DNA of 64,000 bases from Cenococcum geophilum (lineage: Eukaryota), in contig CP158635.1 in NCBI GenBank assembly GCA_050273025.1, forward strand, positions 2,046,001 to 2,110,000, written 5' to 3'. Both the position numbers and the translations under genes were made by a program. Under the pieces are notes generated by a model, which saw nothing but the letters and a program-made list of their open reading frames with translations, had not been told where the DNA came from and did no database searches. This document shows positions 1 to 50,672 of the stretch, piece after piece (the first letter of the stretch is position 1; each line of letters opens with the position of its first letter).

Positions 1-460
1 TATAGCTTTATCCGCCTATTACGCACCTAATCCACCCATTACACACCTAATCCACCTACGAGCCTTTATTTATTTAGCACGTCCATCTGCCTAGCATTCT
101 TATTTAGTATTCTGCTTATAGGGGGTGATATATTTTTATTTAGGACGGAGGAAATTACGCATACGGTGAACTAAGAAAGACGTTAGTTATAGGTATTATA
201 CGTATTTAAGAGATCCTAAAAACTAGAACAACGTAAAATGCCAAACTAAGGCTATATGCCAATTCACCTGCATATATCGCGAATATGCAGTAGGAAGAGG
301 ATAACCTAGAAACATGGCTTTAAAGCTTAGACGGACGTAGATTAATGCTGCGGCATAGTTAAGGAATAAGGTGATAACCTGTCATAGATAGGCTAGTAAA
401 GCCATCCAAGTATTACAAAGCAGTATTAAACTATCTTCGGGTAAACTCTTTAAAGAGTAT

Positions 461-762
461 CCCATGCGCCGTTAAGGCGTACGCCAAAAGAGGCCTATGC
501 GCGAACACTAAAATATTAACACGCTCCTCCGAGGACTTAATTCGGCTGTGCTTTATACAATATACCCCTTTATAAAGAAGGACCTTGCTAGCCTAATTAG
601 CATACAATAGAATCAATTATATATAAATTTTAAGCTTTATTATAACGATTTAGAGCCTTAATTCGCTGATTAAATTTACGACTTTATTTCGCCAAGACTT
701 AATTCAATCTAGTGACTCTAGTTGGTTTGCTTGTGCGTACGCCTTTTTTAACGGCGTATAGG
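461..762. mobile_element. small non-autonomous TIR element with piggyBac-like CCC...GGG ends
   Basis: Left TAT-CCCATGCGCCGTTAAGGCGTACGC. Right end reverse-complements to TAT-CCTATACGCCGTTAAAAAAGGCGTACGC (differences are RIP-type transitions plus an A-run). Same TAT|CCC..GGG|ATA end layout as the piggyBac at 47667-49938. Confidence 0.55.
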
Positions 763-2899
763 ATAGCACCACTATTACCTAGTCCTGTTTTCGCCGCGTC
801 TCGCTTCTTATTGAATTCCCTAAAGAAATTAGATAAACGAAGCGCATTTAATTTCTTTATTTATCTAGTTTACTAAGGGGAACGAGAGTAATAATCGCAT
901 TGACTCGTATAAACCATTACCTGTATAGATTGTGACTATTATATAACCCCACTTTTATGTAAGTAAGCACGGATAAAATGTACGTCCCCTGCTTTATCCC
1001 TGCTGATCCCTTATTCGTAACTTGTTTAGTAAAAAGCCCAGCGCATAACAAATGCAACGCGTATATTACGGCACAGCTTTTATAGAGCAGAAAGCCGAAG
1101 AGCCCATAATGATAAGAAATCTAAAGCACAATCTTACCTCTACCAACCCGCAACCGAGCGCGAGCGTTAACTACGGCACAGCTTTATAGAGCAGGGGGCC
1201 CAGGAACTTGACTTTTCTCTTAGAATTTCTAGACCACTTTTACGATTTTTGCGGGTGAGCTGCATAAATTCTCTATTAAATGACGTTTATTCTTTAAAAA
1301 AAAAATTCTTTATTAAACACGCCAAAAACTCCAAACCGCCGTCCTCTGGTAATCTATTCCTAAGCTCTTGTTAAACTATTAATCACTTAAGGAGTAGCTA
1401 CCGAATATATAAGGCACGCTCCACACTTAACCAGCTATCGTCAGTTCTACCAACGTTTTAATTTACGGAATGGCTTTCCAAAAATCGCCTACGGAGGGTA
1501 ATATGCCTACGCATACCGCCGATGCTAGAGAAGTCAATACATACAGCTTCTTATACTGCTTTATTAGTGGAAATGGTATAGCATCTAGCCAAACCTCTAA
1601 CACTTAATATCCAGATTTATATACCTCCACTCTATTTATAGAGGGCCTAGAGGATATATTAGCGCTTAAAAAGGTATATATGCCTCTTAGAAGTATTCTA
1701 CTTATTTAACAGAATGGTAACTATAGGAGGAAAGGGTAGCCTTAGAGCAAAGGGTAAAGGTACTAGAGGGTAAGTAGGAGAAGCTTATAGAATTAGAAGT
1801 ACGCATATCCCTATAGGCCATTTTAAATTTGGCTAATAAAGTACACCTATAGAAACGGAATAGAGTTTTATGGCTAAGAGTTAATACAATAGAGTCTGTC
1901 TTTAAAAATGTAATTAAGTTGGTGTTTAAGAAACATATTAAAGAGGATTAGGTATAAAATATTCCTCTAGCGATATAAACAGCCTAACATAAAATAATAG
2001 GTTGCTATAAGTCTCGCTAGACATTATCAGAGGTTGCTAGGTGGAGAAATAGTAAACCCTAGCGAATAGTAGCAATTAAAGCAGCTATTATCTTATGGAA
2101 TCGTAGAACTTAGGCTTTAATTTGCTTTAGCGAGTGGATGTTAAATAAGTAATCCATTAATATAACTATTTCTTACTTCCTAATGTCCCCTTAGCTCTTA
2201 TCTATAAAGGGAGGGAAAGACAACGTCTTACTACTACCCCTACTACCTACCCAGCCCTCACGCCTCGCCCGCTACCGTCCCATGCCCGCTAACACTATAG
2301 TTGGTAACGGCCAACCCGCAGCTACCGGCCAGTCCTTACGGCCTATTGCGGACGCTATAAACCCGACGCTAACGCCACAGGGCCTCACCGGATGCCTTGC
2401 TATATCTTGCGCTGTAAAGCCCCTTAGCTTTAGAGTGATAAACATCCTCTATAATAACTACAAGGCCCGCTACTAGATCAATAGGCGTATACCTTTATTA
2501 TAGCCTAACCGGCCAAGCTTTAAAGCCTACTGCAAACAAGGCGATAAGGGTTTTTGGGGTTAAATAGATGTAATTCTAGCAGGAAAGTTTTCAACCCGAT
2601 TTATTTATTTTCAATAGGATAAAATTTTTATAAGAAAGATGCGGATGGCCTAAGGGCAGCTTATAGCGAAACAAATAGCAGTACATTCCTTTTCTATAAA
2701 GAAAAAAATAAAGGGACCGTATTAAATTAAGAATAACAAATTCAAATTAGATCTAGGCTCTAAGGCCCTTATAGAAAACTTTCCCTGGTTACTGTTTCCA
2801 TCTATCCTAATAGTACTTTGTCGCTCTAGTTATAGGGGTAGGTCTAAACTATTATAACCGGGCTACCGCCGCTTTTAGCTATAACCTTATATATAATGC

Positions 2900-3975
2900 A
2901 AAACCTATATAAGATTTCCGGTTAGTATGCTACCTTAGTGTTTATAAAGGAGAAAAATAGGGCCTAAGATATACGCTGCAATAGGAACAAATGCTTAGTA
3001 GAACGACATATCTCTAATAATAAGTAATATAGTGGCAAAAGGAACAATGGCACTAGAAAGTGTAGTAAAATATAGTAATTATAGAAAGATAACCAAGAAT
3101 AGATAGCGCATAATTCGGATTAAATAAACAATTCTAGTATTGTCTATTAGATTAATAATTGTATTATTAAACCTTGCTGTCTATTCCGCCGTTAATAAGA
3201 TACGCTACTTTAATCAGTACATTTAGGCTTAAGGATATAGTAAGAATACCTTTAGAAACGGAGATCGGCAGGCCGAATAACCTAACAGCGCGTAAAGCTA
3301 TAAATCCCGCCAAGTACTAAGTATAAACAGGTTAAACATAGGAGCCGTATAACATTCAAAAAACGCTTCCGTAACCTCTTTGTCGTTATAAAAGAGATTA
3401 AAAAAGCTGTATATATCTCGACCATTGGGCCTAGGGATGCTAAGTATTTATTAGGTAAGAGCCACCCTTATACCTAGATATATTAGCTACCGTTTATAGC
3501 CATAAGTTTATATTTAGGTTAATTTACTATAGTCCTGAAGCGCACTGTCCAAGGTAATTAAGAGTTTATTTCGTTCCTTATTATAAAAGGATATAACATC
3601 GCCTATGCGCTCCCTATTATAATCATTTAGTGCTTTTTTTGCCTCGCTAACCTTGCACTAGTAACACAAAAGGACTTGTATTAATTCTGGTGCGAACTGC
3701 CAAAAGATTATAAACTGCGGCTCTAAAGATATAGTTGCTGCTACCTTTAGAATGCCATTAACGTGGTTATTAACTAAACGTTAATCAATAGTAGGTATAG
3801 ATGGCTTAGCCTAAAACTACCCACTTCTATTAAACCGCATCTTTTAATAGCGGCTATCCCCGTTGTTATATAGATAAGAGAGTAGATAAAAAAAAATGCG
3901 TTTAAGAAGTAATGGCCTAGGTTTAGGGTTAATATTTATAATCGGAATAGTGTCGTCAAATTTAACAAACATTAT
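2900..3975 (-). pseudogene. RIP-degraded DUF6594-like membrane protein gene
   Basis: Minus-strand translation FIIFWQFAPELIQVLLCY*CKVSEAKKALNDY...ERNKLLITLDSALQDYSKL...RPNGRDIYSFFNLF followed by hydrophobic helices. Resembles the IFRRF..L..L..Q..L....L...LKEY...RPS.RD pattern of DUF6594. Boundaries approximate. Confidence 0.55.
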
Positions 3976-5576
3976 CTTAACATTCACAATCCTTAAATCA
4001 CTTTAAGTAATTAGTTAATAGAGAAGTATACAATATATATATGCAGCCCTAACGGTAACCGAGGGCCTTTATTAACAAATTCTATGCACTAGCAGTGGCC
4101 GTATATAGAATAGTCGCGACGCAAGATTGGGGATTTTAAGGGGCTCTGAAAATAACTAATCGGGCCTTGTTATTAAACGCGCGTGTTAATTATACAGCTA
4201 TAGGTTTTTGGGCGTATACAATGCTAAAGCATTAGCACGTCCTATTTGGTGTCTGGCCATACAATATATACGCTTTTAGCTTTAGCAAATCAGTTAACCA
4301 AGCGGGTTGACCGGAAATTCCCTTACTAATAACGCACCCATCCACAGCAGCCCTTTTGTTTTATAAGTTTAGTGCTAAGCCATCTAATCCTTACTTCTCT
4401 ATTGCAGCCCGCGTGCTATACCCCACCAATATAGTTAATATAGTCCTGCATCGCCACCCAATTTACTCTTTATTTAAATTAAGTCTACTAACGCGCTATA
4501 ATCGTATAAGGGGGTCTTATATACTCTTTCACTGAAGCTAGTTAACAGGCATTACATTACCGACGGAGACGTTTACCGACAATACCTAAAGTAAGGCTCA
4601 GCTTGCAGCCTAGTAAGTATAAATTGAAATATAGCGCCCTAATGCAAGAGGGTATCTAGGTAACGTCTTAGCTAATCCCTTAACATTAAGCGGAGTTAAC
4701 CGCGTAACCTAGTTATAAAGATAGGGCTTTATCCATTATAAGGCACCTAAGAGAATTTAGTTAAGAAAATAAATATAATATTTGCAGTCTATCTAATAGA
4801 TCTAGCAATGCCAGTTTTAAAGGGGAAGGGATAAATAATAGGTCACAGGTGGCGTTAAAGTGCCCAGTGAGATTTTAGAATAGTATATCGCCCACAGACT
4901 ACTAGGTTGCCATAAGTATTCGCCCTATTTCACTCTGTACTATACCCGTTCACTACTTCCTTCCTTTATATCTTAATCCAACCGCTACGTCTTACGTCTG
5001 CATTCATCCCTACTACATTTATTAGAGTTAAAACTCCGTCTGTTTAGATTCAGCAAGCCGATATTAGATAGTAGTAGGCGTATATAAAAGGGCAACGCGT
5101 TCTAGGGTTCTATTAGAGGCTCCAAAGTCTTATTTTAAAAGACAGAGCTCTTATTTTAAATTGTCTGGTCAATATATAGTATATAGTATAATATTATTTT
5201 AAATAATATTTATTAATATAAGGCACGAGGTAGACAGGGAGTCTAATTAACAGAATAATAGGATATATTAGTAGGTTGCAAGAAACCAAGAGACGAATCC
5301 TTAAGGAAAGGGGGCGTCTCGGTGCGAGGGCGTGGAAGAGATCTCCTAGGTCATGTACGCAGCACGTAGCTCGTATGCAAATAATATACGCCTCGCAGCT
5401 ATATACTATACTAGCACCTAACAGAAATAAAGAAAAATTTTATTAAATTAATTTATAACGACTATACTACCTGCTAGTTTCTCTACTTGCCTTCTTATTA
5501 AGTACTTCTATTATATTTCCCTTACTTTTCTTACTTACCTTTTATTCTTTGTTCGCTAGTTAGGGGGATAATAGTT

Positions 5577-8500
5577 CTAGGTAAAGTAGCTTATCAGTTG
5601 TATATCTTCTAAGACCTCTAGCCGATCTAAAGAGAATCCCTAATAGGCGATTTAGCATTATTTGGAATCATCTAATAGGGGATAATTACTTCTCTGTCCT
5701 TAAGCCATGTATCTTATCTCTTCTCCTTAAAGACCGCTAAAATTTCCTTTACGCTATTGTCCACTAGCCCTAAACCTGAGCGCGAGGTCTCTATAAGTGT
5801 AACTAATACTTCCCATTGCTATAATGCTAGGGCTGTCTAGTACGGGAATGCTAGTAGTAAAGCACTAAGGCCGAGTACTGCGCCATAAATTTGCCATTGT
5901 TGTTAATAGTTCTTTTTCAACATTACTATATATAATTGCCGCCGATAGTCAATACCAAACACTATAGGTAAGGCCCTAATCATACTAGTGAGCGTATTGG
6001 CGGCCTTAGCTCGGACTTCCGGCTGCTTATTAAAAATCATATTGTCGACATATTTAATAAGGTCCCACCGCTGATTGTCCAACATAAGGAACAGGTTGTA
6101 GTAGTTAAAAATATCTATAAACTGTAGAATGAGAGACCGGTAACGCTAAGATTCTACCTTAGCTCCCACGCAGATTAAAATAGAGACAAATGGTCTAACT
6201 TTATCTATGCGGAAAGGGACATTGGAAAGCTTGTTAAGGATTTCTTCTACTAGGAGTTTAGTCTCTTTGTTAATAGCGACTATAAAGAGGATAAGCTTAA
6301 TAAGCCTCTCGTACGGGAAATTAAGCAGCTAAGTATAACTGTAAGATAACAGACAGGTATCCCACTATATTAAAAGGGTACGCATAGCCCAGACGTAAGA
6401 ATCTTGGTCGTGCTTCTACCATATATTAAGTCGGCGAAGGACCTCAGCGTTTATTATAGATTCCTTATCCGTTAACTAATATGGTCGGATACTAACTAAA
6501 GAATATTTCATCTATGCGTTAATAAGATGGTCAACATCCTTATATAACTTGCTAATTGTTATTATACGGGCTAGCGCTATACCTGTTGCTAAACGGACAG
6601 CATTATACGGATAATTAAAATGCTCTATAAAGCCTTATAAAATCTCCTGCTTTTCTAGATATCGTGGACTAGTATAGTAAATAATTAAGCCTAGCAGACT
6701 GATCTAAAGGGAATCTCAAGATGCTGTATTAGATTCCATACTAATATGAAACGTAGGTTCAATAAGTGGCCAGAATTATCTTAGGTCGTTATCTTTTATT
6801 ATATGCCTTAAAAACTTCTCCTAATTCTTATTGGCTAACCGCTCTTATAAAACCGTTCTAGCCTTAGGTAAGATGGATTTCCAAAACGTCTTTAGTATAT
6901 ATAGGGCTAAAACCATAGAAAGAAGGAACAACGCAGTTATAGCTTCTACAGCGACCCCGTAGTAGTTTTTATCACTATACGCTTTAAAAATACTCTCTAC
7001 GAATTTTTAAATATTTGCAAAGTTAGACCTAGTCAAGAAAAGCCGACACATATAATAAATTAACATATAATGCGACTCTTGGAATTCATAATCTAGTTCT
7101 ATCTTTATAAACTCTAATTGCTTTAATAGCCATTCTTAATCCAATCGCTGCGCAATGCGGGAGAGTACCTTCTCCTCAAGGTCGTTATATGTGACTTCTA
7201 TAGTAATAAGCCGTGCTACCTACGGAGATTTACTCCGTACTATCGTTCGAGGGTCTTTATCCGTATAGTATTTTTCAATAGAAGTCTTAGACCCTAAATC
7301 CGACTTATAACCGGAGTTAGTCTAAGGGTTTTTATTAGGGTCTAAGACAACGTCTTAAAGATAATTATCGTATTTACATTCGGTAAAGATTCGTATATCC
7401 ACCAACTTAAAGATCTTATATATAACCTGTCGAGAAATGCGACGAAGGTCCAAATAAGAATCTATAAAGGCTTCTATAATTATATTAATAAACGCTTTAA
7501 AAGCAATTAAACCGTAGGCAACTTTGAGGTTTTCTATAATCTTTATAATTAGACACTGTTTTATCTTCTAGTGAGATTCCTTAGTTAATTAGATAAGATC
7601 CCTTAATAACTTCACTTTCTCGCTCGCTATAAAGTCACTTCTTGCCTAAATTTGGGCCTTGACTTTCTCTGGGATAATGGCCTCTCCGAAGTTATACTAG
7701 TGAATAACCACGCATTCCCAAGGTCTAACAATATCTATAATTTACCATTCCTTATCTCTTAAAAAATTCTGCATAGAATCGTTCTTAATTTGAGTAGCCT
7801 CGACGTAGGCTTTTATGGCACGTGGAATATATCCCCAATGCTAGGAAATTTTGGACCGTATACAGCTAGATAATAAATAGGTTATTACGCCTTCAATACT
7901 TATAGGATTTTCCCCCTCTACTACTCGTGTAAATGCGTCTAGAAGTAGTGGAATAACAAGTAATACGGTCCTTGGAAATTGGCCCACTACCTAATTAAGT
8001 ACATTCCCTATGCTTTGGCGAACTTCCTTATAAGCAGACAAGCTTAAATTAATAAGGTTAAAAAGCAGTAGCTTAGTCAGCTTTAGTTCCTTTAAGGGCC
8101 TAGAGTATATATTATAGTCCAACCTCTAAAAATAATACAACTGTGCCCGCTCAATAAGTAGCGGCCTTAGATATTCCTTTTAGAGCCCTTTAAACTTAAA
8201 TAGAGTAAGCCAAGCTTCGAAAATCTTTAACCTTTTAGACATTTCGTCATTATAGGAACCCATTTAGGTAAACCATAACTTAGATGCATTATACAACGCC
8301 TTAAAGCATTGCGGTTTATCCTACTACTCTATAAATAGGAACTAGTGGGTCTTGTAAATAATTCTACCTATCTTATAGCGCAGCTTATAAACTAACTAGT
8401 AATTCTCTCCTCCTTAATCTAAGGGGTAACCCGACATATACTGGAAGGTTAGCTCCTTATCCTCCGTTTTAGCTAAATTGGTACCGTCTTCATCACTATC

Positions 8501-11242
8501 TATATTAATTCCGCCCCTCTAGTATAAGGCGTCACAGCCCATAGTAGGATTGCTATGGTTAGCCCTAGGATTAAAAAGGGTTGAAATCCCTAACATTACT
8601 AATTAAAGAAGGTAAAGGCATTAAGATACTTTGTCGGACCACTCTTTCCTAGTACCGTCTCGTTTAATTAATAGCGTAGGTCTAGTTAAATTAGCCAAAG
8701 AATTAATTACTATATTACACTGCGAGCTAAACAGTTTGGCCGCAAAGTTGATTTCCTTATCACTTAGCTTATGCCATATAATATGCTTTAAGTCGGCAGT
8801 TTTACCCTATGCTTACATTATAAGTTTATTCTTAAGTTCGTCCTTCTTATAGATTAAGTGATTGATAATATATATAGCTGTTAAATTATATAAAAGACGG
8901 CTGGTGATATTAAAGGCAATTATCTTAGGCCTCCCTTTACATTCTAGCTGCACGTACTTAATAATAGCGAACAGCTCTTTTTTCCAAGCAAGGACAGAGT
9001 CTCTAACTTCGGTTAAGGAATAACTAAGCAGATGCATAGTCCACACTAATGTGCAATCCCCTAGTAGTATCTCTATATCTACCGTTATACCAGCTCCGTA
9101 AATGTCGATTTCTCTGCAAATACTAGTAATAAGAAGGGGGAGCAATCGCTTTAGAGACTTTCCGGGGTTAACCTTTACAAATATATTACATAAAAAACCC
9201 ACTGCGGATCTTATTTGCTAAAAGCTAGTACTCGCTATAAATCCGGCAATTCTATCTAGCGCCATATTAAATAAATCCAGCGATAATGCTGTAAGAAACA
9301 CAGTAGATGCTCTTCTAAGCATATATAGCACCTTATTTTCCAAGTAATCGCTATATAAATGGAAACTGTTAGGCCTCTCTAACTTCTCCAAAAGGGCGAA
9401 GACCTAGTTAAATAGTAATGCGACAAATCCTAAAACTTTTGCGGTAGATAACTTTAGAATTACTTTTTCCTAATAGTCGTCTAACTCTTTCTTATAGTTA
9501 ATATTAATGTCGCCGCTTTCTAACTAGACGATCTAATTAGTTATCTACCGCTCAGCTAGGTATAAGTCGTGTTCCACTAGGGTATTTATATCATCTTCCT
9601 ATACTAGCTTATTATAACCCGCTATCTTCTCCTTTATTAGGTTGTGGAACGGTACTATATAGGATATAACTTCTATACAGGACAATATGTATAATGTCTT
9701 CTCCAGATCATTGGCGTTAATACCCAGAAGAATAAGCCTAAGGAGTGTTATAATGTAACACCTATAGCCTTTCGCCTTTGCTATAATGTTAAACAGTACG
9801 CTTAACGCTTGGATTAAGGGTATTGTTCTATAGACTTTAACTAGGCCCTAGATGGCTAGATATATCCACTAAAGGGCTTTAGGCAGGATTAAGTCCTAGT
9901 TAAAAAAGGCCAGGAGTCAAAGAGTTAATATAGTAAGTTCCATAGTAGAAGGTATCTTAGCGAAAATTCCTATAAACACGGCCTCCCGTAAGCATAGTAC
10001 GAATCAACACTTAAGAGCATTATTAAGTCTCCTCTTATCTAATACCTCCATTTTACCACTTCGCTCTTAATTCTAGCGTAAGATAAATATATCAGCTAAA
10101 TGGAAGACTAGTTATAATAAGGTTAGAGTCTAGTCGCCAGAATTTAATAGATGGAAGTATATCTTAACGGCTTATAAGAGGTTTTCTAGCTTTAATAAAA
10201 CTAAGTCTAAATAGACTAAACAGGCGGGAGATAAGGACATTATAATTAATTAAGCGACATTCTAGGCAGTAGGAGGGCTTTCGGTATTAGATTTAAGTTA
10301 CGCCCTTACTCTCTAAGAATGTTCTCTAACTTATTGGTAAGTAGAGTTTGAGTTTTTATCAGGTATATTAAGAAGCCGTAAAATAGCAGTGAAAATAAGC
10401 GCAGATTGTTAATTGGTAAAGACACTATACTCTAAGAACGGGATATATCTTGCGAGTAAAGAGTCTTTAGTAAGCCTAGAAAATAGATTAATAAAATTCT
10501 TATTAGCAAACTATAAGCAAGCAACCTAGGACTAAGCATTAAAGAGAGTTAGTAGGTAGCATTATTGCTTTTTAGCAGTCTACTCTATAGGGACTATTAG
10601 GAATAACAGATTAAGTAACGCAATTACTATATATATATGCTCTGGGTTAACAATGCTAAAGTAAGGCAGAAACTCCTTAAATATGGCGGGAATCTGTTCC
10701 GGATTAAAGTAAAGATAAGCGGACTTATAAACTTAGATCAATAAGCCGGTAAGACGGTCTATGTTTTTAAAATAAACGGTTCTAGATTTATTAGGCAGGA
10801 ACTCGGCCTTAAGTTCTTTAACAGCGCGTCTCCAATTAAGTATTAGGACTTTCCTATACTAAAGGCGGTATTTCCAACTATAAGTAGTATATTAGCGAAT
10901 AAAATGTTAAACTAGGAGAAACAATTAAGAAAGCCATTACTTTGCTAGAGTTATAAACATATTTTGAAAATTTCTTATATATTCTATATTTAACCCTTAT
11001 ACTAACCCTAGCTTAAAACAGAGTCTTATAAGCTTTAAATAAGTATCGCGAGGAAGTTTAAATTTTAGGTATAGTAAGTTTGAAATACACGTTAGTAAAG
11101 AGTCTGCGCGACAATACTATTTTATAGCCACCGCGATATAGAGTTTCCCTACGCAACTCTCTAGAGCCCTTACTCCATCCACTTTATCCTCGGTTTAATA
11201 GGGAAGATTCTTAAAATAGTTAAAGCTGCGTTATCGATCCAT
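5577..11242 (-). pseudogene. BLM10: RIP-inactivated, divergent proteasome activator Blm10/PA200 (PSME4) paralogue, apparently full length
   Basis: Collinear Blm10 motifs. N-terminus: RSFNYFKNLPY*TED...KLYIAV...LKFKLPRD. Middle: GFLCNIFVKVNPGKSLKRLLPLLITSICREID...KKELFAIIKYVQLECKGRP...IIWHKLSDKEINFAAKLFSSQ...KEWSDKVS. C-terminus: QPEVRAKAANTLTSMIR...GAVLGLSALLLAFPY...KEILAVFKEKR*DTW, then an intron and LEVLEDIQLISYFT* (stop 5577-5579). Many in-frame stops and at least one frameshift. Confidence 0.9.
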
Positions 11243-12189
11243 TTGGGCAAAAAGTGTAATAGAGATTAATTTAATGCTGAACGTAAATACGTAAAAACGG
11301 TTTTTCTAATAGAGTATCGAGCTAAATAAAGGCGAAATTTTGGTTTAGAACGTCGCTACTAAAATATCGGCTTGATGTTGTGGATCCAATAGCGAGGTAT
11401 AGATTGCGGTGTGCATTAGCTAAGCTAGCTTAGGGTATATATATATGGTGGTGACGAAGGCGTGTCAATGCCTTACTAATGCTGGTGCTGTGGGTGACTA
11501 AGACCGGTAAATGCCTATCTTAGAGGCATTAAAGCCTAAATTGAAGGCGGGTGTGCCGTAGATATATATATAGAGGTTGCGAACTAGTATAATAGGAAGC
11601 CCCTATAGGGCAAACATCGCCTCGCCTCTAGCTATACTTTAGACACTTATAGAATATAGGGCCAGTATTAGTGTTATAGGTAGTAAAGATTAATAAAGGT
11701 TAAAAATGATGTTTAAGGCTTAAATTGGGATTTCTAGACGGTATAAGATGAGAAGACGCTACGAATATATCTTAGAGTAGGGCGTAAATTAGGAGGCGCT
11801 AAATATAAGGGAGTGAGCCGTATATACATCTGTGGAGGTTTTTAGGCGCTAGGAAGTTTAGGGAGAATTTATATATGCGACTGCGGAGGGCGAGATATTA
11901 GCATATCTATTCTAAATAGAGAGGCTAGTCGTAGAGCTGCTTGCCTATAAGTATTGCCTTTAGAATTAAATAAGAATTGGTAAGCGGAATTGGTATAGCT
12001 ACATATTTATTGTCTAGAGGCGCTACGCACGACGGAGGCCGGTTAAAGGTCGCGTGTAGTATACTATCTAGGGTCTTATTAGGATATGCGCTAGCGGGAA
12101 ATGCGTAAACGGGAAAGGGAAGGGGCGCCGCCTATATATCCGCGTGGAGATGTTAGGTATCTATTTATAAAGTAATATACGACTTATAT

Positions 12190-12990
12190 ATTGGTTATAG
12201 CAGTATATATAAAAGAGGCCGGTGAAAGGGTTTGCGGTATAACGTTTCTTATTAGAGTGACGGGAATGAGGTTTATAATAGGCATAAGTGACAGCCTTAA
12301 GACGTCTAAATATTACGTGCCTATGCTGAGGGGCACTGCCCAGACCGAAATCAGCCCCACTATAATCACTTTTTATTACCCGCTGTTTAACACATCTATA
12401 TCCCGTATTTGCGTCTTGCTTATTATAGGCACCACTATAACCACACTAAAGATACTTCGTAGTATAGAGAGCCAAGATACGGATAGCTTGCGCAAACAAC
12501 TAGCAATATAGGGCGAATATTATTCCTTACGCAACTTTCTAGAGCCTCTCTATATACTAGGCACCCCTCTAAAAACAGAGAAGATTATTTCTACGTACCT
12601 AGAGGTACTGTTAACATTTATAATATATGATTTATGTTAATAAATAAGAACCAGAAAGCTAAAGAACACGCCGCTACTATACTTAACACTACCTCCAACA
12701 AGCTCTTATTTAAAAATTCGTTCCTAGCAGTATATATAAAACTAGAAAAACCTGGCCCCGGCGTACGCGGATCAGTAAATACGGCTATAGTGATATTAGC
12801 ACTTAGCAATTTAGATCGGGATAACGGGTTTCCGCTATTTCAAGTCTTAAGGGAAAGAAATTTCCAGCCCTTTTAGCTTAAGAGCGGTAATATACTAGCT
12901 GCGCCGGAGGATATACTTTAGTACTTTAAAGGTAAGGAAGGCGGGCTCGCGTATATATCCACATAGCTTTGTTGAAATACTATCTTATAG
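12190..12990 (+). pseudogene. RIP-degraded gene, weak resemblance to PhyH/2OG-oxygenase-like beta fold
   Basis: Fragments TAIVILALSNLDRDNGFPLF...FQPF*LKSGNILAAP...GGL resemble the 'ialddlt.enG...velkaGd' pattern. No catalytic residues confirmed. Confidence 0.25.
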
Positions 12991-13266
12991 GTAACTATAG
13001 AAGGGTAAGGAGAACGTAAGGGTTATGTATAGTTAAAAGCCGGAATACTATTGAAATTTAAGGAAGATATCACGCCTAGGGTGCTAGAATTTGCTAAGGC
13101 TTGCGGGTTAAAGCTATTGTTATACCCTATAGAGAAAGCGGTAGAAGAGGAATTGATATAGCTATTTATTGCTAATCTACTATTCTCGTAAGAGGTAGGC
13201 AGGGCGCCATTTATCAATCCAGTATCCGGCAGCCCTCGGTGTTGGCCTTAATAGATAGGACTTAAA

Positions 13267-13590
13267 GGGTCTAAGGCGGGTGGGGGGTTTAGATAGTTAT
13301 ATAGCCCGCCCTTATAGAGTTTATTAAGAGTAGAAGGATCCTAGGCGGGTAGCGGGTTTAGGTAGTTATATAGCCCGCCCTTATAGAATTCGTTAAGAGC
13401 AGAAGGATCCAAGGCGGGTAGCGGGTTTAGGTGGTTGTATGGCCCACCCTTATAGAATTTATAGAGAGTAGGAGGATCCTAGGCGGGTAGTGGGTTTAGG
13501 TGGTTATATGGCCCGCCCTTATAGAATTTATGGAGAGTAGAAGGATCCTAGGCGGGTAGCGGGTTTAAGTAATTATATAGCCCACCCTAC
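13267..13590. repeat. 69-bp tandem repeat, about 4.7 copies (23 aa, approx. GGPYNHLNPLPAWDPSALxEFxE on the minus strand after undoing RIP)
   Basis: GG(A/G)TC(C/T) anchor at 13267, 13336, 13405, 13474, 13543. Confidence 0.95.
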
Positions 13591-14769
13591 CGGTATTTGG
13601 TAGGACGGACTGGAGAGTTTATATACAAATTATAGTAAGGGTTAATAGGGCTAATAATCGCGCCTAGTCTTGCGTCGTTCCCTCTATAGGAAGATTTCGG
13701 AAAGATTCCTTATATTAGATTAGGGCTCCGGCTAGTGACCGGGACTTATACGTCCACGGTTGGCCTACTTATACCATCTTCCCTTTCTTAGGTAAGACCC
13801 GGTTGTAGTACTAAGTTATAGTCCGCCAGGTGGTGGCTCTTATCGCTAGGTCTAGTTATCTCCACACCTAAAATTATATCTTAAGCAACCACCGGAGCGG
13901 TAGAGGGGATATTATAACGGGCTTTTTTGGACCTGTGGCTTTTATTCACAACTAAGCGCCGTCCCCGCTTAAGAGCATTTATTGCCTCTATTATTTAGTA
14001 GTAGATAGATTTGGCAATATCTTTAAAGGGGTCTAGTAAGCCGTCTTTAATTGTCATACTGAGCTCGTTAGCACTTAGCTTGTCCGCGCCTAAGTCGTCC
14101 ACCTTTTTAAACTGCGCATTCTCTACAATACCCAAAAGTTTAAGTTTATTAACTGCCGCCTCGCGGTTGTGACCACTTAGCGGCAGACAAAGCCATCTAG
14201 ATTATTAGTATTTTAACCTTTTTAGATATTCGGGTACTTATAAATTATTGTTTATTAATTCTGGGAGTAGAAATAAGGAACCCTAACTAAGAGATAGTGC
14301 TAGAGTATGCTACCTTCTACTATCTAAAACCCAACTATCTATTTTTTCCTTCACCTCCTTAAGCTCAATCCTAGTGCTATTGGAGACAAGTACGGCTAGT
14401 ACTTCCGTGTCTTTAACTATTTCACGCAGTCCATCGTAGAACACTATGAGGAATCTCCAGTGGATAGAGTCAATGAGAGCATTCTGCTTAATAAGCACAG
14501 TAGCATTATATAGCGCACCTAAGCTAGCACTAATAACTCCCTAAGGTTGTAAGTGGATGATAAAGTCTCTTTATAGTTAGGAGTGGGCGATAGTATTTCC
14601 TTATGGTTGTAACTGGGCTATAGGTATAGTAAAGAGGAAAGTCCAGTTACCGGTCCACCCTATATACTGCTTTCAAATTTTAGGGTTAATACAGAGCTGC
14701 TCTAGCGTTATTTTTAGCAAGTACTAAAATCTTATACCTTTTAAAATCTTAACAATTTGTAGTTCTCTT

Positions 14770-15020
14770 TAAGGGGGGTTTAATGTTAAGCTATCGTTTA
14801 ATAAGGGACCGTTGGCACCAGACAGGAGCTTAGTGACTTGTAATCCATTTTAAGAGGGATTTAATATTAAGCTATCGTTCGATAAAGGATTATTAGCATT
14901 AGATGGAAACTTAGTTATTTATAATCCATTTTAAGAGGGGTTTAATGTTAAGCTGTTGTTTAATAAGGGACCGTTAGCATTAGACGGAAGCTTAGCGGCT
15001 TGTAATTCTTTTTAAGAAGG
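14770..15020. repeat. 81-bp tandem repeat, 3 copies (27 codons)
   Basis: TAAG(A/G)(A/G)GG anchor at 14770, 14851, 14932, 15013. Confidence 0.92.
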
Positions 15021-18783: not shown

Positions 18784-19210
18784 TGCAGATTTAAGGATTG
18801 CTAAAAGACGATTAAGTCAACTTCTAATAACCTCTATCGCTATAAAAGAAACGCCTACGGAATACACGGCGGCCACAATGCTTACCTCTGCCCAGATTTA
18901 CATTATAAGAAATCTTAAGAAGGCAACGGATTCACTAAGTAAAACAAATTAAGAGACCATATAAGAAGAAAACACTCTCAAAATCCGTATTTAACCCTAA
19001 ACCAAATACTAGGGGTTCAATGCGGATTTAAGGATTGCTAGGAGACTATATTAACTTCTAGTAACCTCTATTGCTATAAAAGAAACGCCCATAGAATGCA
19101 CGGCAGCTACAACCCTTACCTCTACCTATATTCAAATTGTAAGAAATCCCAAAAAGGCAACAGATTTACTAAGAGGTACAAATTAAAAAACTATATAAGA
19201 CGACACACTT
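18784..19210 (+). pseudogene. two duplicated pairs of C2H2 zinc fingers (237-bp spacing), RIP-degraded
   Basis: Copy 1: CRFKDC*KTIKSTSNNLYRYKRNAY...YLCPDLHYKKS*EGNGFTK*NKLRDHIRRKH. Copy 2: CGFKDC*ETILTSSNLYCYKRNAH...SNCKKSQKGNRFTKRYKLKNYIRRH. The His->Tyr and Cys->Tyr changes are those RIP produces. Confidence 0.75.
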
Positions 19211-21159
19211 AAAACCTAGATTTAGCCCCGAATAATATCGCGGCGCCCCTTTAGACGAACCTGGATTTAGTAGAGTTAAGTTCCAATTTTCAACTAGGTT
19301 TATTTATAGGTATATTTATAACCCTCCTTAGTTTGCTAATACGTGTGAATTTCTAATTATACGTAATTCAGGATACGGGCCCGATTTTCTATTTACCCCG
19401 CCCCCTACTCCCTCCCTTATAGCTTCGGCCGGTATTCCTTCTTCTATTAACTAAGCGCAATTATATATTGGAAGGCATTCACAATCCTCTATAACAATTA
19501 CTAAATATCTTATAAATCCCTAGTCTAAATAAGCTAATATAGGAACTAAGACTAAGGTAAGAAGTTAAATAAATCTAGCTAATAGGCCACTAAGACGTCA
19601 ACACCGCTACTATTAGATCCCCCCTAGAGCAGACCGTCTCTTTTACTGCCTATATTAGCCTAAATATAAGTACAGACCTACTCCGGATAAGAGAAAGTTT
19701 AAGTAAGTATAGAGCTACCCCTTATTAGTAGTTTATCTAATTTAGTGTTAAGAGAGTATATAGACCGGCATATAAGAGCCTTTAAATGCGGGCATCTAAA
19801 ATGTATATAGTCATTTAGGTGCGCTAGCAGTCGCATAGAATACAAAATTGTAATTCATCCTATATATAGCGGCCCATATATAGATTCCCACCCACCCCCG
19901 ATTAGCAAACGATTAGTAGAAGGGCTTACAGCTACGGAAATTTTAGGCGGACGTATTAGTGTTATATATCGGAATACGGCAGCCTATGCCACTTATATTG
20001 TACAAAACTATTTCTAAAATAAACTAAATAGTTCGGGTTTTAAAGGGTGGTGCACAACAGTACCGGTCCTAGAAATGGTAGAATTTGATACTAAGCAAAT
20101 CAAATTTAAGGATTTAAACCAGTTTTGTCCTGTAGCGCCTCTATAGGATCCAATAAGGCGGGATCCTAATTCTCAGTTAGCGACGAATAATTTGGTACGG
20201 CCCTATGAATATACCTTAAGTAATAATTCCATTATGGCCGGTATATCTACAACCATTATACACTTACTAAGGTGGCCAGTATTAATAATATATAAGTTAG
20301 TAGATCCGCATAACTATTCTACCCTTAATAAACCTGTACAGTTACCTACTTCTAAAGCCTTATATGATAAAAAGCAAGTACTATTAGGCCGCGATTCGCA
20401 GACTTTATCAACAATTAACAGCCTCAGTATACCAGGAATATTTCCGGGCCTTAAGCGGTCAATTCTAGAGCCAAAGGAGTCTAAAAAATTGCAGGATATA
20501 GTCCTTCAGTTAGCTACCCCTCTATTATTAGATATACCAAGCTGTCCAAATATACAGTTAGAGATCATTCAAGCTTATCTACTTTAATCACCTATATATT
20601 AAGATATAAAAAAGCAAGATATATAAGAATGCAGAGAGAAGCATAATAGCGACCAAGTATATATTAAACCTCCCAATACTATTACTAGCTTAGTACGTCT
20701 ATCCCCTTCCTAGTATATCTAGTGCTATCTACTAACACCTATATATAGACAACAGCGCCGCCTAGTAGTACGAACTTCGGCCTATAGGGTAATATAATTA
20801 CAGGTATTTATAATATGTGGCCTGTTATAGGAGTTCCCTAAATAATTAATAGGATGGCAAATTATCTGTCTTAAACTCTAAATAATCCTAAGGTCTGCCT
20901 ACGCGCACTAATAGCCCTAATGCCGCCTACCTTTTCTCAATCGTCTACCTCTATGCACTTAGCTAGAATAGAAAGTATAGATAACAGCCCTAAAGATTAC
21001 TTAATTAAAGATTCTAGCAATAACAATATAAATCTAGGGTGGGACTTTTTAGCTTCGGCACTTATGGAGATAATAGATAATAATAGCGCGTGGCAGCCTC
21101 TAATATACGGAACTTTTACTAATTTAGAGGAGACACTGCAACAATCTCTCAATTCAGGT

Positions 21160-21760
21160 TATCTATTAACACTAATGCTAAAGACAAACGACAAATATAT
21201 TAGAGAGACCCAAAGCGAGGTTTAGGAGTCCTATATAGCACATCCAGAGTTAGTAGAGCATCAACCACTTCAGAATAAGACCCTTTAAATAGCTAGCCCT
21301 TCATCCTTAGAAATATTCAGCAATTTACTTATTTGGTTGGGTATAATAACCAAACAGATAGAACTATAGCAAATCCTCCCAGCAACTCCTAATAGTTCTT
21401 TAGAAATGTATAAAGGCTATCTATTTATACCTCTTATATAGCAGGAAAGGACCTCTCCTATAGATAGCGATAACACTCCTACTTTGGACCTATCTACGCC
21501 AGCTCCACAAATAAATTGTAATATCTATTATAAGAGCTACGCTAGTAGGTCAAACATGCTTTGACATAGACGATCTTATAAGTTCGGCTTTATATTACGA
21601 TTCTTTTTTATTTCTAATATATCTAGATATATTAAATTCAAAACATAACTGCCAAAAATGCAATAAAAACTTTTCATAAGCGGACACTTTTACTAAGCAC
21701 CTGCAAACTTATATAAATAGAGCCCTCGAATTCCTAGAAGCGCCTAATAGAGATTTACGC
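21160..21760 (+). pseudogene. Ser/Thr/Pro-rich segment plus intron-split C2H2 zinc-finger pair (copy 1)
   Basis: INCNIYYKSYASRSNML*HRRSY, degenerate intron, then NCQKCNKNFS*ADTFTKHLQTY. Confidence 0.7.
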
Positions 21761-22614
21761 AGTTAAAAAGCCTGTTCTAATTACTAGGCTTCTAAAGTAA
21801 AATATAATAGGAGACACGCTTATTATATAAGAAAGAGATAGTCTGGTAGTACGGCGGCATCTAGGAGGATAATATAATAGCGGTGTTTACTGTTAGTCGT
21901 CTAAATAGTTAAGGATTTTAACTATAGAGTGTCAACCTAGATTAGATTCCCTTATTACTATTGTACTACTGTCTATCGACCCAGATCATATTTACATACA
22001 CTTTATCTTAGTTATCTCTTAACTTATAACTAAATGTCTTATTAAATATCTCTATCCCTTCCCCTCTACGAAGTTCAATGAGTTAGGATTCCAATTCTCA
22101 GCTAACGACGAGTAATTCAGCGTGGCCTTCCGTATATATCTCGAATACCCATCACATTATTGCCGGTATGTCTATAACTCTCCCTAGCTTAGTAATATAT
22201 AGCGGGCATTAATAAGACATAAGTTATTAGATCCGCGCGCGCACTTTATACCCCCTCCTAACAACCCATACATTAAAGGTCAGGCACTATTAGGCAATAG
22301 ACAGCACTGTTAGGCCTTCAAAACAACCACTAGCTACACTACAGATCTCTACGACCCCAATACGCAATAGACATACCCTAAAAGTGACATTAACATCATA
22401 AATACAGTTCTTATAAATAAACTTATAAATAAAGGTGGCTCTACCTATGCCTTTGACGTGGCCTACCTCTATCAAATATATCTAGTCTCATTTAATCTAC
22501 TATTATTACCACACCTACTATTTTTACTAAATGCTAATATAATTTATCTACAGAGCTTATACTACTTCAATCGCTGCTTAAACAAAGTAGGAATATATCC
22601 CAGCTTATTGCAAA

Positions 22615-23200
22615 ACTGTTAATATCAATGCCAAAGATAAATAACACATTGGAGAGATTTAAAGCGAGATTTAAATGTGCTATATAGCGCATCTAGAGTT
22701 AATAAAGCGTTAACCACTTTAGAATAAGATCCTTTAGGTGGCTAGCCCTTCGTCCTCAAAAATATTCAACAATTTACTTACTTAGTTGGGTACAAAGACT
22801 GGGTAGATAGAACCACTACAAACCCTCCTAACAACTCCTAATAGTTCTTTAGGAATGCACGGAGGTTATTTATTCGCACTGCCCATACAGCAGAAAAAGA
22901 CCTCTCCTACAAATAGCAACAGCACTCCCGCTTCGGAACTATCCACACTAGCCCTATAAGCAAATTGTGATATATGTTTAAGGAGCTACGCTAAAAGGCA
23001 AGACATGCTTCGATATAAACGGACTCGTAAGTTCGGCTTTATACTACGACCTTTTTTTTTCTAATACCTCTAGATATGCTAAATTCCAAATTTAAGGGCT
23101 TAAAATGCGCTAAAGACTTTTCACGAGCGGAAAATCTCAATAGGCACCTGCAAGTTCATAGGATAGAAGTCGCCAAATCCCTATAAGCACCTAATTAGAC
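22615..23200 (+). pseudogene. Ser/Thr/Pro-rich segment plus intron-split C2H2 zinc-finger pair (copy 2; diverged direct repeat of 21160-21760)
   Basis: ANCDICLRSYAKRQDMLRYKRT, intron GTAAGT...CTAAT...TAG, then KCAKDFSRAENLNRHLQVH. Shares nucleotide blocks such as CAACAATTTACTTA and CAACTCCTAATAGTTCTTTAG with copy 1. Confidence 0.75.
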
Positions 23201-24369
23201 AACTTCGACCGGCGGTCGAAGTTCCTTAAAATCTCTTTAACCACCTATATAGAAAATAAGCAATACACAGAGTTTTAGCTCCATAACCTCAATTCAACAC
23301 TACTACCCTATATCTCACCACCTTAATTATATCTCACTACCTGTTTCTATTACCTGTACCTACCTTATATATAATTATTTATTACTTAACATCCGATTCG
23401 GATCCCTATTAGGCTTACGTAAACTAAACCTTATATATATAGATAGCTTCTAAAGCCGGCTTTAATCGACAGAGTTCTTATTCTTAATCGCCCTATCCGA
23501 CACTTAATAATCTCTTATTAATTCCAAAAGCGCAAAGTTAGAACATGCGGATTTACAAAGTAAGCCTTCTTTATAACGAGCAGAGCTGATTTTATTTTGC
23601 TATAACGCTGTAACCTCCACCAATTTGACTTTAAATTGCGTAAATAAACCCTTATTTATATAAATTGGAGCTATTATAGCGAACGCGTATGCCTATACGC
23701 AAGGGCCTTTTTAGTTGCCCTAGAGAATCGCCATAGTTGCCCTAGAGAATCGCCTAGGTTGGCCAGGAGAATTAAATTAAAGATATACGCTTCCCCCTTA
23801 ACTACGCCCCCGTTATTGCCGCCAAAACAGGAATATAACGCTATCTCTGCAATTACTAACGAAATTTAGCAATATCGTACGGGCGGAAACCTTACGATAT
23901 TTAACAAAGATTACGACACTACGGAGGAAAGCCAATCGCGAAGTCTGCTAGAAGTAAAGTTCTTATAGCTTAAAGTACTATAGGAGAAAGTTCTATTCCT
24001 AAATCATTTAGGCCTAAGCTTACCACACGCTATATATTTGGGGGTAATCTCTACTTCTCTTTCTTTTTTAAAGATTCGCCGTCGATCTCCTTTTACTACT
24101 TTTATTAATGGCATTTCGTGGGGTCAATCTAAGCCCCTTCTATATTCCACTCTTATCTACCAAAGCCATAAGTGTTTTTCTGTCTTCCTTCTTAAGCGCC
24201 TCTCTAAGCTTTCAAAACCTTATAATATACTTAATAAACTTACTAAGATTCCTTTTATAATAAGATCAAAGTTTATAGAACATTAGGTTAATTATAGGCT
24301 CCTTAGTAGGCTTCTAGTATAAAACTACCACTTTATTTATAATGTGAACCAAGCAATACCTTAAATCCT

Positions 24370-26700
24370 TATTGCTCTTCGCGGCTCTAATACTCGTCAG
24401 CCTAGGCTTCCACTCCACCCAGTATTTAAGTGCACCGTTTTCGGTTACGCCTTCCAAAATTTAGTTTAGTCTTCTTAGGAATCTAGTAGGCTATTTATCT
24501 TCTCTTTCACAATCTAAGCTGTCATTAGAAATATCCGCAAAGTAAGCTTTATCATCACCTACTTAGCCGTTAGTATAATCAAAAGATCTATAATTATTTA
24601 GCTATCTTACTAAGAGGCATTAGAGAAACGTACTCAATACTAGCGACTGTATTCGCGGGGTCAGACAAGCCTATTATTGGGTAAGAAATTCCCACCTATC
24701 CGGGACCGGACGGCTACGAGTAGTCCTTAACTAGAGAAAGCATGGCTAGCGAGAGCTTAGGGCCAGAATAAAAGAATTAAGAATTATAAGTGCTATAGAG
24801 CAAAAAAATACTACGCGATAACGCCCTTTATACCCTCACGCCTAGAACTAACGCCAGAAGTATAGCTCTAATCTAAAAATATCAAACCATGCAAGCTGCT
24901 TCGCCGCAACACTAAGTCATATTAATAGTTATAGGATAATCTTTTTACCGCCCGTAACCTCTGGGTATTTAAGTGGCTAATACCTCTACCAGTATCTAGT
25001 GTCTAAGGCCCTTCTTATAATATCAAGTAAGTCCCCTATTTAATTCTAAGCGTAAAGCTTAGCTTAATTGGATCATCAGCTTTAAACAATAATCAACTAT
25101 TAGGGCTACCCCTAAACACTAGTATGTAGAACCCCTTATCCGGTTCCAAATAGAGTAAAAACTATATTCCTAAACTTCTTCTTAGTTACGTCAAAGCTGG
25201 CCGAATACGCCGCAGCTTTATCTCCTAACTCCTTACTTACGCTACATGCCTTAGAAACCGTAGCACAGCGCTTAGAAAGCGGCATTGCTTTTACCTACGT
25301 TATATAGATTTAGGCAGAGACCACTTATAATCCAATAAGCAATAATAGCTAAGCACTACTCACAAAGCCAGAGACCGATGCGTTAGTTCTTCCGCACTAA
25401 TATAATACATTTTAGTTAGATATTCATATTTAGTATAGCATAAAAGTATTGCATTATTATAAACGGATCAAAATCGTCTCCAGAAATGATTAAAGCTAAT
25501 AGTCTGCTTAGAAATAACTATAGCGAACATTACTAGCAAAAAATAGTATTTTAACATCACAACCGTATAAAAAGTACTGCGATCTTAAAATAGTATATTA
25601 TAGACCTTTTTAACTTCTAAAATCTATTCTACGCAGCAGCACTGTTGTTTAATCTTATAAAACAAGCCGTTCGAGCGCTACTATACAAACCTATAGCGAG
25701 CATATAGACATCTCTTTAAAGCAACAGAAATCTACCACACTAGTTAGCACCGCACTACCTACTATTATTGCCTCTACCTCCGCCTCCTATATATCTTATT
25801 TATAGGCAAGGCCTTTACCTAAAAGCTAGTATACTAAGGAAATCAAATACCGCTATATTGTATACAGCGCCACAATAGTCATAAAGGACTTCCGCTTTAT
25901 ACCAGTAAGGGTCTCCTTCTTCTATAAATTTTACCATCGCGTACACAATTTGGTCTTGTAGGTAGACTATAAGTCTATTAACCTTTATCTTGGTTAGTCT
26001 AAGTTCCTATAAGTAATGCCAATCTTAAAGGCGAATAACATATAGTAGAACTTGGCATTGAATGTAGTTCATTCTATAGTGATCGAGCAAACAGTCTCCA
26101 TAATAGGTATAGTCCTAACAATTCGCTCTCCATATTTCGTCTCCAAAGCTATATTTCTTCTTGCAAGAAGCACACAAATCTTCAAATTTTATCTAGTCTA
26201 ACGGATAGGCACCATAACTACTAAGTGCCACAGCACCCATCTACTTTCTCCCGTTATAGACAGCTTTGCTATTAAGACTGCAAATAGCTCTGTCCTTGCT
26301 TTCCTCATCTATATTATAAAATATTTTTATATAAGCTGTTTTTATAAGCGCGAATATCAATAGTGCTCGCTGTTGGTCATCAATATAATTAAGAATTTCA
26401 ATTATAGAGTTAATTTCCCCATAGTATTCTGTAAGGACCTTCCGAGCTTAGTCGTAGTCCATATAGGGAAGTGATCTTAAAAGTGCTTATTTGTCTATAC
26501 TCTTAAATAATTTCTCGCGATCGTCATATAGTATTTCTTTAAGGAAAGCTCGGCAGATATGCGAATTTATTAACTAGCTTATATATTGCTGATACATCAC
26601 AATACGCGTATTGTGGTCGCCATTAATAAAACAGTTTACTTCATTGATATCAATAGATATATTAGGCCGAAGAAGTATATCGTCATCCCAAAATAAAAAC
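24370..26700 (-). pseudogene. RIP-degraded gene(s) with a RING-like Cys/His motif and a chromodomain-like motif
   Basis: About 26175-26050: LCASCKKKYSFGDEIWRANC*DYTYYGDCLLDHYRMNYIQCQ (de-RIP C-x2-C...C-x2-H-x2-H-x2-C...C). About 24480-24390: LN*ILEGVTENGALKYWVEWKP. Exon structure not resolved. Confidence 0.45.
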
Positions 26701-49938: not shown

Positions 49939-50307
49939 ATAATATCTCCATTGCGCGCTATAAACCCGTGCTAAAGCTTACCATTTTATTGCCTATATAA
50001 AATGCAACGTATATTGCATTTCACGCGTTAGCTAAGCAGTAGAGCTACTTCCTCTACTTCTTCCTCATTTAATTTATAATCTACGCGTTATTTAACTCCT
50101 TTAGCACCGCGTAGGGTTTGTGGATTAACTGCTTCCTCCCCTCTTCTAATTGACGATAATACTGAATTGGGCGGTTAAGATAATTCCGTATCGCGAGAGC
50201 CTCCTCTAGCAAATCGGAACTATGGCTGGGATAATCTCTACCTAATAATATACGGTAAGCTTACTAGCAAATATGGATACCGGGTTATTAATAAGCGGTT
50301 GCTATTA

Positions 50308-50672
50308 ACGTGTTCTACTAGTTATCCGGCAGCCCCAAAAACCACCAAAAATTAGAAAAAATGCACCTTAATATCTTAATAACGGCTTAATAATAAATTC
50401 CAAAATTTTATAATTAGCCTTTTAACCCTATTTTAACCCTTTTATTAGATTTAAAAATATTGCAATTTAGCTTAAAATTAGGGGCTAAAACCTAATATCT
50501 TAATAACAGCTAGGCTTATTATACTAGAACTTTATTAAAGGTCTTAATATAAGCACAAAAGGCTAATTATAAAAATTTGGAATTTATTATTACGCCATTG
50601 TTAAGATGTTAAGGTGCATTTTTTCTAATTTTTGGTGGTTTTGGGGGCTGTTGGATAACTAGTAGAACACGT
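50308..50672. mobile_element. MITE A, Tc1/mariner-type, long TIRs, TA TSD
   Basis: TA|ACGTGTTCTACTAGTTATCC...GGATAACTAGTAGAACACGT|TA; inverted repeat longer than 100 bp. Confidence 0.9.

Follow-up and report, generated by a model that had tools for sequence, protein, structure and literature searches.

Proteasome activators of the Blm10/PA200 (PSME4) type have been described as unique per genome across eukaryotes, as is their PF11919 domain, which serves as the signature of PA200 orthology (PMC4453063). The nearest known phenomenon to the one described here is the amplification of a housekeeping gene with the aid of a transposon and its subsequent repeat-induced point mutation (RIP), for which PMC6710886 gives histone H3 in a hAT element of Pseudocercospora fijiensis and, as a second case of a gene amplified and then mutated by RIP, the DNA methyltransferase of Zymoseptoria tritici. 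In the literature searched, which did not extend to most subscription journals, there was no paper linking Blm10 with RIP, or a proteasome activator with the cargo of Starship giant elements. Here we analysed a stretch of 64,000 nt of Cenococcum geophilum (contig CP158635.1, positions 2,046,001 to 2,110,000; the whole stretch is called the window, and all coordinates refer to it). The interval 5577-11242 is probably one inactivated copy of a dispersed repeat family, in which only one gene can be recognised, that of a strongly derived proteasome activator of the Blm10/PA200 type.

The interval contains a full-length Blm10/PA200 gene relic on the minus strand, running in a single frame from 11242 to 5577. 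The coordinates, N- to C-terminal collinearity, terminal intron and SYFT* ending given in a first-pass annotation, made from the sequence alone, all agreed with Pfam searches, tblastn and the gene model, and the gene is made up as follows:

5690..11242, minus strand: exon 1 of 1851 codons, free of frameshifts but interrupted by 79 premature stops
5640..5689, minus strand: terminal intron of 50 nt, GTAATT...ATTAG, phase 0, also present in two further copies of the family (L001 and L002, described below)
5577..5639, minus strand: exon 2, the docking tail, which reads GFSLDRLEVLEDIQLISYFT, then TAG

Almost all of the premature stops are TAG (44) or TAA (32), together 76 of the 79, the remaining three being TGA. 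With 79 stops from RIP in 1851 codons, the window copy is not an open reading frame (ORF) and therefore makes no protein; no RNA run was listed as a match to the relic's own words, which is uninformative on the expression of the relic itself.

The minus-strand read-through, with X at stops, was searched against Pfam and matched the complete HEAT_PSME4_mid profile (PF16507, 1-524 of 524, residues 352-890, 354.9 bits, E-value 1e-105), as well as PSME4_C (PF11919) at the very end of the protein (read-through residues 1784-1852, 38 bits with a cut-off of 22.5, E-value 1.5e-9). The match to BLM10_N (PF16547, 30.5 bits, cut-off 27.2) covers only positions 37-74 of 81, and the relic protein begins inside this domain. 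Translation would start at an ATG at 11242, which is common to L001, and none of the three frames upstream of it contains anything similar to the ~50 N-terminal residues of native proteins. A tblastn search with the native Blm10 protein P0003 returned one high-scoring segment pair in one frame (residues 51-1948 on 11236-5696) and no second Blm10 copy in the window, and the read-through also matched yeast Blm10 structures at an E-value of 6e-18. At the level of sequence homology, the fold family is settled.

Removal of the 50-nt intron restores a 20-residue tail of native length, and the relic tail GFSLDRLEVLEDIQLISYFT is identical in length and similar in pattern to the native ...AFETEQLEDLEGVLWKSYFA. 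In Blm10/PA200, this C-terminal tail enters a pocket of the proteasome alpha ring. The last codon is ACC in the window copy, ACC in L001 and GTT in L002, so the ancestral codon was GCC (Ala), which gives the SYFA* ending that the first-pass annotation had proposed; the Thr at the end of SYFT* resulted from a G>A change at TpG. The ancestral SYFA ending, together with the PSME4_C match, also bears out the suggestion that the docking tail was kept.

When the read-through was compared with 5.8 billion proteins, one close match was found (67% identity over 88% of the query), an open protein of 1671 residues from a single 19-kb assembly contig (P0002), and the next matches were native Dothideomycete Blm10 proteins at only 33-37%. 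Codon by codon, 1121 of the 1647 aligned positions of relic and P0002 are identical, and 368 mismatches are explained by C>T/G>A alone, including 63 of the 72 aligned stops. As only 158 mismatches need other changes, relic and P0002 would be ~90% identical without RIP. The comparison with native proteins is very different, with more than 700 of the ~1100 mismatches of the relic impossible by C>T/G>A. Near-identity to native BLM10 once RIP is discounted had been set beforehand as a refutation of the first-pass annotation, and this was not seen, since the relic reaches at most ~59% identity even when every C>T/G>A-compatible mismatch is counted as an identity. P0002 itself is 43% identical to Lindgomyces Blm10 and 42-43% identical to the nearest natives, in agreement with the initial description of a highly divergent gene with mostly non-RIP substitutions. 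A second, word-based search with P0002 (35 proteins at an E-value of 1e-100 or below) gave nothing closer than 43%, and no full-length relative above 42% was present among 1.84 billion cluster representatives, where the matches of higher identity were ORF fragments of 112 and 137 residues, from further RIP-mutated copies. The intact long-branch homologues in other fungi that the first-pass annotation named as support were not recovered, as two broad searches gave only P0002 and short ORF pieces of RIP-mutated copies.

The extent of the divergence is most apparent at positions that native proteins do not change. P0002 keeps 561 of the 1022 columns that are invariant in seven Pleosporales-type natives and has changed 461 (45%), whereas each native keeps 1205 of the 1231-1294 columns invariant in the other six, and so changes 2-7%. 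Old RIP damage was considered as a source of the divergence of P0002 and was ruled out, with 97 changes in the RIP direction and 83 in the reverse direction at the native-invariant columns. As these are balanced, the divergence represents ordinary, very fast protein evolution with the frame open. The P0002 gene model reads through the terminal intron.

The relic belongs to a multi-copy family. Public contigs were placed on positions 3000-15000 of the window at a likeness of at least 80%, and counted in 30 bins. For organism A (X1), 1162 contigs were placed, of which 370 were at least 99% alike, 227 at 95-99%, 368 at 90-95% and 197 below 90%. Their summed depth was ~130-500 in all 30 bins compared with 21-33 for single listed contigs, or ~6-10 copies' worth, with summed contig depth being a rough stand-in and not a true copy number. 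Organism B (X5) contributed 3975 contigs with a single-contig depth of 5-9 at a summed depth similar to that of organism A, an indication of more copies, while organism C (X20) gave 24 short contigs only. Differences between the organism A contigs and the window were predominantly transitions (A>G at 663 places, C>T at 669, G>A at 688 and T>C at 500), with 15-32 places for each class of transversion. At 10770-10771, all organism A contigs that cover these two places have GG (128.7 of 128.7 depth), in contrast to AA in the window, so that even the run with the best match departs from the window at this point.

Three further copies (L001, L002 and L003) were found by scanning metagenomes with an alignment of P0002 and the relic; P0002 on its own had recovered none in such a scan. 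L001 is a complete copy, mutated by RIP, on a 156-kb contig, with flanks on both sides unrelated to those of the window, and has one frameshift near residue 145 and otherwise one frame, compared with none in the window copy. A copia reverse-transcriptase relic lies upstream of the L001 copy, and the first ~40 nt of the repeat unit are present twice in L001, at 8627 and 8812 (185 nt apart), as a small tandem duplication. L002 consists of the RIP-mutated 3′ third of the gene and 2.9 kb of common downstream sequence. L003 is a 1.2-kb fragment (1-1243) with a GC content of 0.46, no RIP signature and one in-frame stop, in which a piece matching window positions 11641-11532 is joined to 7294-6921 at an ATTTAGG microhomology, representing a 4.2-kb deletion. 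It adjoins 765 nt of unrelated DNA of normal composition and, unlike the longer copies, escaped RIP. The pile-ups in organisms A and B and the three further loci show that the relic family is not single-copy per genome, and the first-pass annotation was right to place the relic in RIP-mutated DNA of a dispersed, multi-copy family.

The composition of the relic region differs from that of the gene island at 32-48 kb of the window, with TpA/ApT at 1.3-1.5 versus 0.7-0.9 and (CpA+TpG)/(ApC+GpT) at 0.65-0.73 versus 1.2-1.35. Between the window copy and L001 there are 835 transitions and 150 transversions, and when purines and pyrimidines are merged, which makes RIP invisible, the copies are 91-100% alike. 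Transversions between copies amount to just 1.5-3.6%. With L003 as unmutated reference, C>T changes in the window copy affected 18/33 CpA, 9/28 CpG, 2/20 CpC and 0/31 CpT sites. This dominance of transitions with a preference for CpA/TpG identifies RIP as the agent. In the reversal of RIP that had been proposed as a check, a consensus from two to four copies raised the identity to P0002 from 68% to 74% and removed only 33 of 85 stops. The small gain may be due to too few copies, or to many sites being mutated in all copies.

A less damaged copy is transcribed in organism B. From its raw RNA reads (X21, ~12% of the run read), 9883 reads were placed, 8502 of these being less than 90% alike. They differ from the relic by A>G at 687 places and T>C at 468, compared with 92 and 74 places for the reverse changes C>T and G>A, and since the reads carry G/C at the A/T of the relic, the transcribed copy has little or no RIP damage. 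The first mate was on the plus strand in nearly all reads, and a spliced joint at 3204/3250 has CT..AC on the plus strand, equivalent to GT..AG on the opposite one, which makes this minus-strand RNA, in sense for the Blm10-type gene. Read depth was 20-177 over 5406-12222, which includes the whole gene, ~0 over 4203-5405, and high again over 3000-3800 and 12624-15000. These reads concern another copy than the relic, one that may or may not be open over its full length.

Within 3000-15000, RNA depth was greatest (up to 557) over 3000-3850 on the minus strand, with reads continuing below 3000, and this region contains an intron:

3205-3249, minus strand: intron of 45 nt, GT..AG, from organism B RNA

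No protein family was recognisable in any frame of 3000-3850, a region inside the part of the unit common to L002, and the three minus-strand frames of 2400-4300 gave no convincing protein. On the other side of the relic, 12601-14399 on the minus strand is a low-stop frame (8-12 stops per 300 codons) without a Pfam match, and includes a tandem repeat at 13265-13588 of 69-nt units encoding GGLYNYLNPLPA.DPSTL..FYK. On the strand of this frame, organism B RNA carrying unmutated letters extends over 12624-15000, with joints at 13448/13514-13601 and 14196-14243, and it looks like another former gene with an expressed intact relative.

The repeat unit extends beyond the gene on both sides:

11243..11694, minus strand: upstream part of the unit (promoter/5′ leader), common to L001
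2702..5576, minus strand: downstream part of the unit, common to L002, in which no protein family could be recognised

Homology to L001 ends sharply at 11694 (TAATCTTTACTACC...), with unlike flanks beyond, and homology to L003 ends at 11641, while contigs of organisms A and B break at ~11589 and 11770-11772. In the downstream direction, the window and L001 share sequence from 11694 down to 4191. The L002 contig ends at the point matching window position 2702, and the 3′ end of the unit lies at or beyond this. Since L002 shares sequence down to 2702 and L001 up to 11694, the common unit is at least 9 kb (2702-11694). The claim that the gene had travelled in a multi-copy element holds for the copy number, but no transposase, terminal inverted repeat, long terminal repeat (LTR) or Starship captain was found in the scanned parts. 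As identical methods detected the gypsy element at 53-59 kb, which is itself mutated by RIP, any known transposase inside the unit would probably have come to light. The unit may lack autonomy, may belong to a larger structure that continues past the edge of the window, or may have been spread by recombination.

Several observations count against the interpretation of the interval as a copy of a dispersed repeat family carrying a derived Blm10-type gene. The upstream limit varies among copies (11589, 11641, 11694 and 11772), unlike a clean transposon end, and organism B RNA was also detected over 11694-12222 and 12624-15000, so that the true unit may exceed the part shared with L001. Searches for a carrier gave no Pfam match in the six frames of 1-5600, whether to a transposase, a reverse transcriptase, a recombinase or any other family, nothing transposon-like among the 186 stop-free ORFs of the window (80 + 106) except the gypsy relic at 53-59 kb, and no Pfam match in nine low-stop frames of the left AT-rich block; neither an inverted partner of the 5′ end of the unit nor a long direct repeat around it was found. 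The summed depths used for the copy estimate, as stated, give a rough value. Transversions between the window copy and L001 are spread evenly over codon positions (33/35/38), and give no direct sign of purifying selection. Indels between the coding sequences of these two copies were multiples of three in 10 of 11 cases in one MAFFT DNA alignment, which hints that the progenitors may have diverged while still coding, a point given little weight as the even transversions do not back it. Finally, P0002 begins ~218 residues inside the frame of the relic, which leaves the N-terminus of the open copy putative.

It is possible, although we consider it doubtful, that the Blm10-type gene was one of several passengers in a larger multi-gene segment, for instance a giant element with cargo or an extensive segmental duplication, which was multiplied whole and mutated by RIP, leaving the ~9-kb unit as the common remainder of broken copies. 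The pile-up of organism A contigs in all 30 bins of 3000-15000 is in line with this, as are the same-strand RNA with unmutated letters over 3000-3850 and 12624-15000, and the left AT-rich block (1-32 kb), which lacks a classical transposon domain and has several low-stop frames resembling former genes. However, seven organism A and six organism B contigs that match to the right of 11770 diverge to its left, the flanks of L001 are unrelated on both sides, and the depth of organism B contigs drops from ~250 to 22-82 over 12223-13826. A captain-type tyrosine recombinase (DUF3435) also gave no Pfam match, in scans that covered 14.4-32 kb only as ORFs of at least 48 residues and selected frames; an element could extend beyond the window.

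In a maximum likelihood tree of 45 rows with native Blm10 proteins, as called for by the first-pass annotation, the relic and P0002 grouped together with a support of 100 on a long stem of 1.73 changes per site, inside an 18-row Pleosporales-type clade (Shimodaira-Hasegawa-like approximate likelihood ratio test 100), where their position relative to P0003 and Delitschia is unresolved. The tree is from a quick search without a mixture model and includes a long branch, and the approximately unbiased (AU) test did not reject placement of the pair outside all 31 Dothideomycete-type natives (p 0.27), which also speaks against our interpretation. From these sequence comparisons, the lineage likely originated within the Pleosporales-type clade. 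Its description as old thus fits the length of the stem, but does not extend to the copies, which differ by so few transversions.

The position of the pair at the base of the Pleosporales-type clade is also what would be seen for the orthologue of an unsampled sister lineage, and a P0002-type gene could then be the only BLM10 of its host lineage, a runaway orthologue that was subsequently amplified, with the RIP-mutated copies as by-products and no extra paralogue. The neighbouring gene in the window has only nameless relatives (84-91% identity), a sign of sparse sampling of the host lineage among named proteins, which adds to this possibility. We nevertheless think it unlikely, since a change of 45% of native-invariant positions, against 2-7% in natives, would be extraordinary for the sole copy of a conserved single-copy regulator, and one long-branch copy is the usual pattern after duplication. 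The uniqueness of PA200 genes per genome, as given in the survey PMC4453063, also counts against it.

A horizontal transfer that brought the lineage into the host from a fungus that is distant or unsampled, without duplication in the host lineage, would agree with the very long stem and with the placement outside the Dothideomycete-type natives that the AU test allows. We regard this as improbable, as the best tree nests the pair in the Pleosporales-type clade and the identity of P0002 falls steadily from Dothideomycetes (42-43%) via Lecanoromycetes (39-40%) and Eurotiomycetes (38-39%) to Sordariomycetes (35-37%), with no donor-like sequence among the proteins or cluster representatives searched. 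Although RIP spreads into adjacent single-copy DNA, it is scarcely credible that the relic is a recent segmental duplicate of an ordinary native BLM10, or a native gene struck by RIP leaking from neighbouring repeats, given the ~59% maximum RIP-discounted identity to natives, the only 43% identity to natives of its undamaged relative P0002, and its multi-copy state and position ~20 kb inside an AT-rich block.

For the favoured explanation, an inactivated member of a dispersed family with a derived Blm10-type gene, we propose that the lineage started with a duplication of a Dothideomycete-type BLM10, and that the duplicate, freed from the constraints of the canonical gene, may have evolved very fast, losing the ~50-residue N-terminal extension while keeping the PSME4_C domain and SYFA tail. 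The coding sequence of the family was open before RIP, with its frame kept through the very large divergence, and copies would have spread by some carrier or recombination process. RIP then struck the copies independently, mainly at CpA/TpG, leaving the window copy with 79 stops and no frameshift. An open version persists elsewhere in P0002, and in organism B a version with little or no damage is transcribed in sense. An open member is predicted to be able to cap the 20S proteasome still, docking on the alpha ring.

The term mobile proteasome regulator, used in the first-pass annotation, does not suit the window copy, which is dead, and can apply to the family only. A more far-reaching version is that an active mobile unit carries a neofunctionalised, Blm10-derived proteasome cap, docking on 20S through SYFA and with nearly half of the conserved surface remodelled, which would serve the element or take part in an arms race, perhaps through a redirection or block of proteasome activity, and would be under diversifying selection while RIP culls copies. 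This we consider decidedly unlikely.

The remainder of the window consists of two AT-rich blocks (1-32 kb and 48-64 kb, GC content 0.32-0.42), both with RIP-type dinucleotide indices, separated by the gene island (32-48 kb), which has a GC content of ~0.48, a normal composition, and ordinary genes for an F-box protein, an Lsb5-like VHS/GAT protein and F-actin capping protein alpha. The right block contains a retrotransposon:

53021-59204, plus strand: RIP-mutated Ty3/gypsy retrotransposon, from its LTRs and Pfam matches of ORF pieces

Its LTRs are 210-bp direct repeats (53021-53230 and 58995-59204, 95.7% alike), which enclose ORF pieces matching RVT_1 (55982-56134), RT_RNaseH_2 (56504-56671) and a Tf2-type integrase SH3 domain (58205-58372), and an 83-bp match resembling this LTR is also present in L001, at 21774-21851. 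In the same block, a low-stop frame at 62403-63900 on the plus strand, which by eye resembles a hAT-type transposase, gave no Pfam match at an E-value of 0.01 or below. At 50305-51110, where the AT content of the window is highest, ~800 bp match their own reverse complement at 75-79% and form a long, imperfect palindrome. In the left block, low-stop frames extend over ~5 kb of the plus strand (19800-24900), with three changes of frame and an internal duplication (21163-21748 versus 22616-23195, 75%), and weak C2H2 zinc-finger matches lie within or near these frames (19042-19209 and 23031-23183); they may represent a large gene mutated by RIP, or a protein encoded by an element and belonging to a family not yet described.

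Compared with canonical Blm10/PA200, the relic lineage has the three Pfam regions with their order kept, that of BLM10_N only as a partial match, ~1850 collinear residues, a short terminal intron at the matching position before the last 20 codons and, in the inferred ancestor of the family, the ...SYFA tail. It differs in having only 42-43% identity to the nearest natives, versus ~90% among close natives, in the change of 461 of 1022 native-invariant positions, and in lacking recognisable homology to the N-terminal 50 residues. The family is moreover multi-copy and its window copy a pseudogene, whereas PA200 is reported once per genome in PMC4453063. Starship giant elements, which the first-pass annotation had in view, are similar in that they offer ordinary genes of Pezizomycotina a route to mobility and to multiple copies, but neither a captain nor element ends were found here in the parts scanned, and the copy number is above that usual for Starships.

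The cases described in PMC6710886 share with this family the multiplication of a core gene, the location of copies in AT-rich blocks, the killing of nearly all copies by RIP and the persistence of an open version. Unlike those cases, the relic family has no identified carrier transposon, its gene of 5.6 kb has its own intron and flanks rather than being a short captured fragment, and the open version is a highly derived, paralogue-like form and not an ordinary housekeeping gene. PA200/Blm10 has been treated as present once per genome, with its C-terminal domain as orthology marker (PMC4453063), and here a radically remodelled form has been multiplied, with RIP destroying most of its numerous copies, and is still transcribed with little or no damage. 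Should the open copy be functional, it would be a natural experiment on which parts of the dome of 1900 residues are needed for docking, and on what else a proteasome cap can become. This dead locus exposes an unusual and directly testable gene family, and the few housekeeping genes known to be amplified and then mutated by RIP are joined by a core gene that is large and contains an intron; what is new is which gene was amplified, and the degree to which it has diverged.

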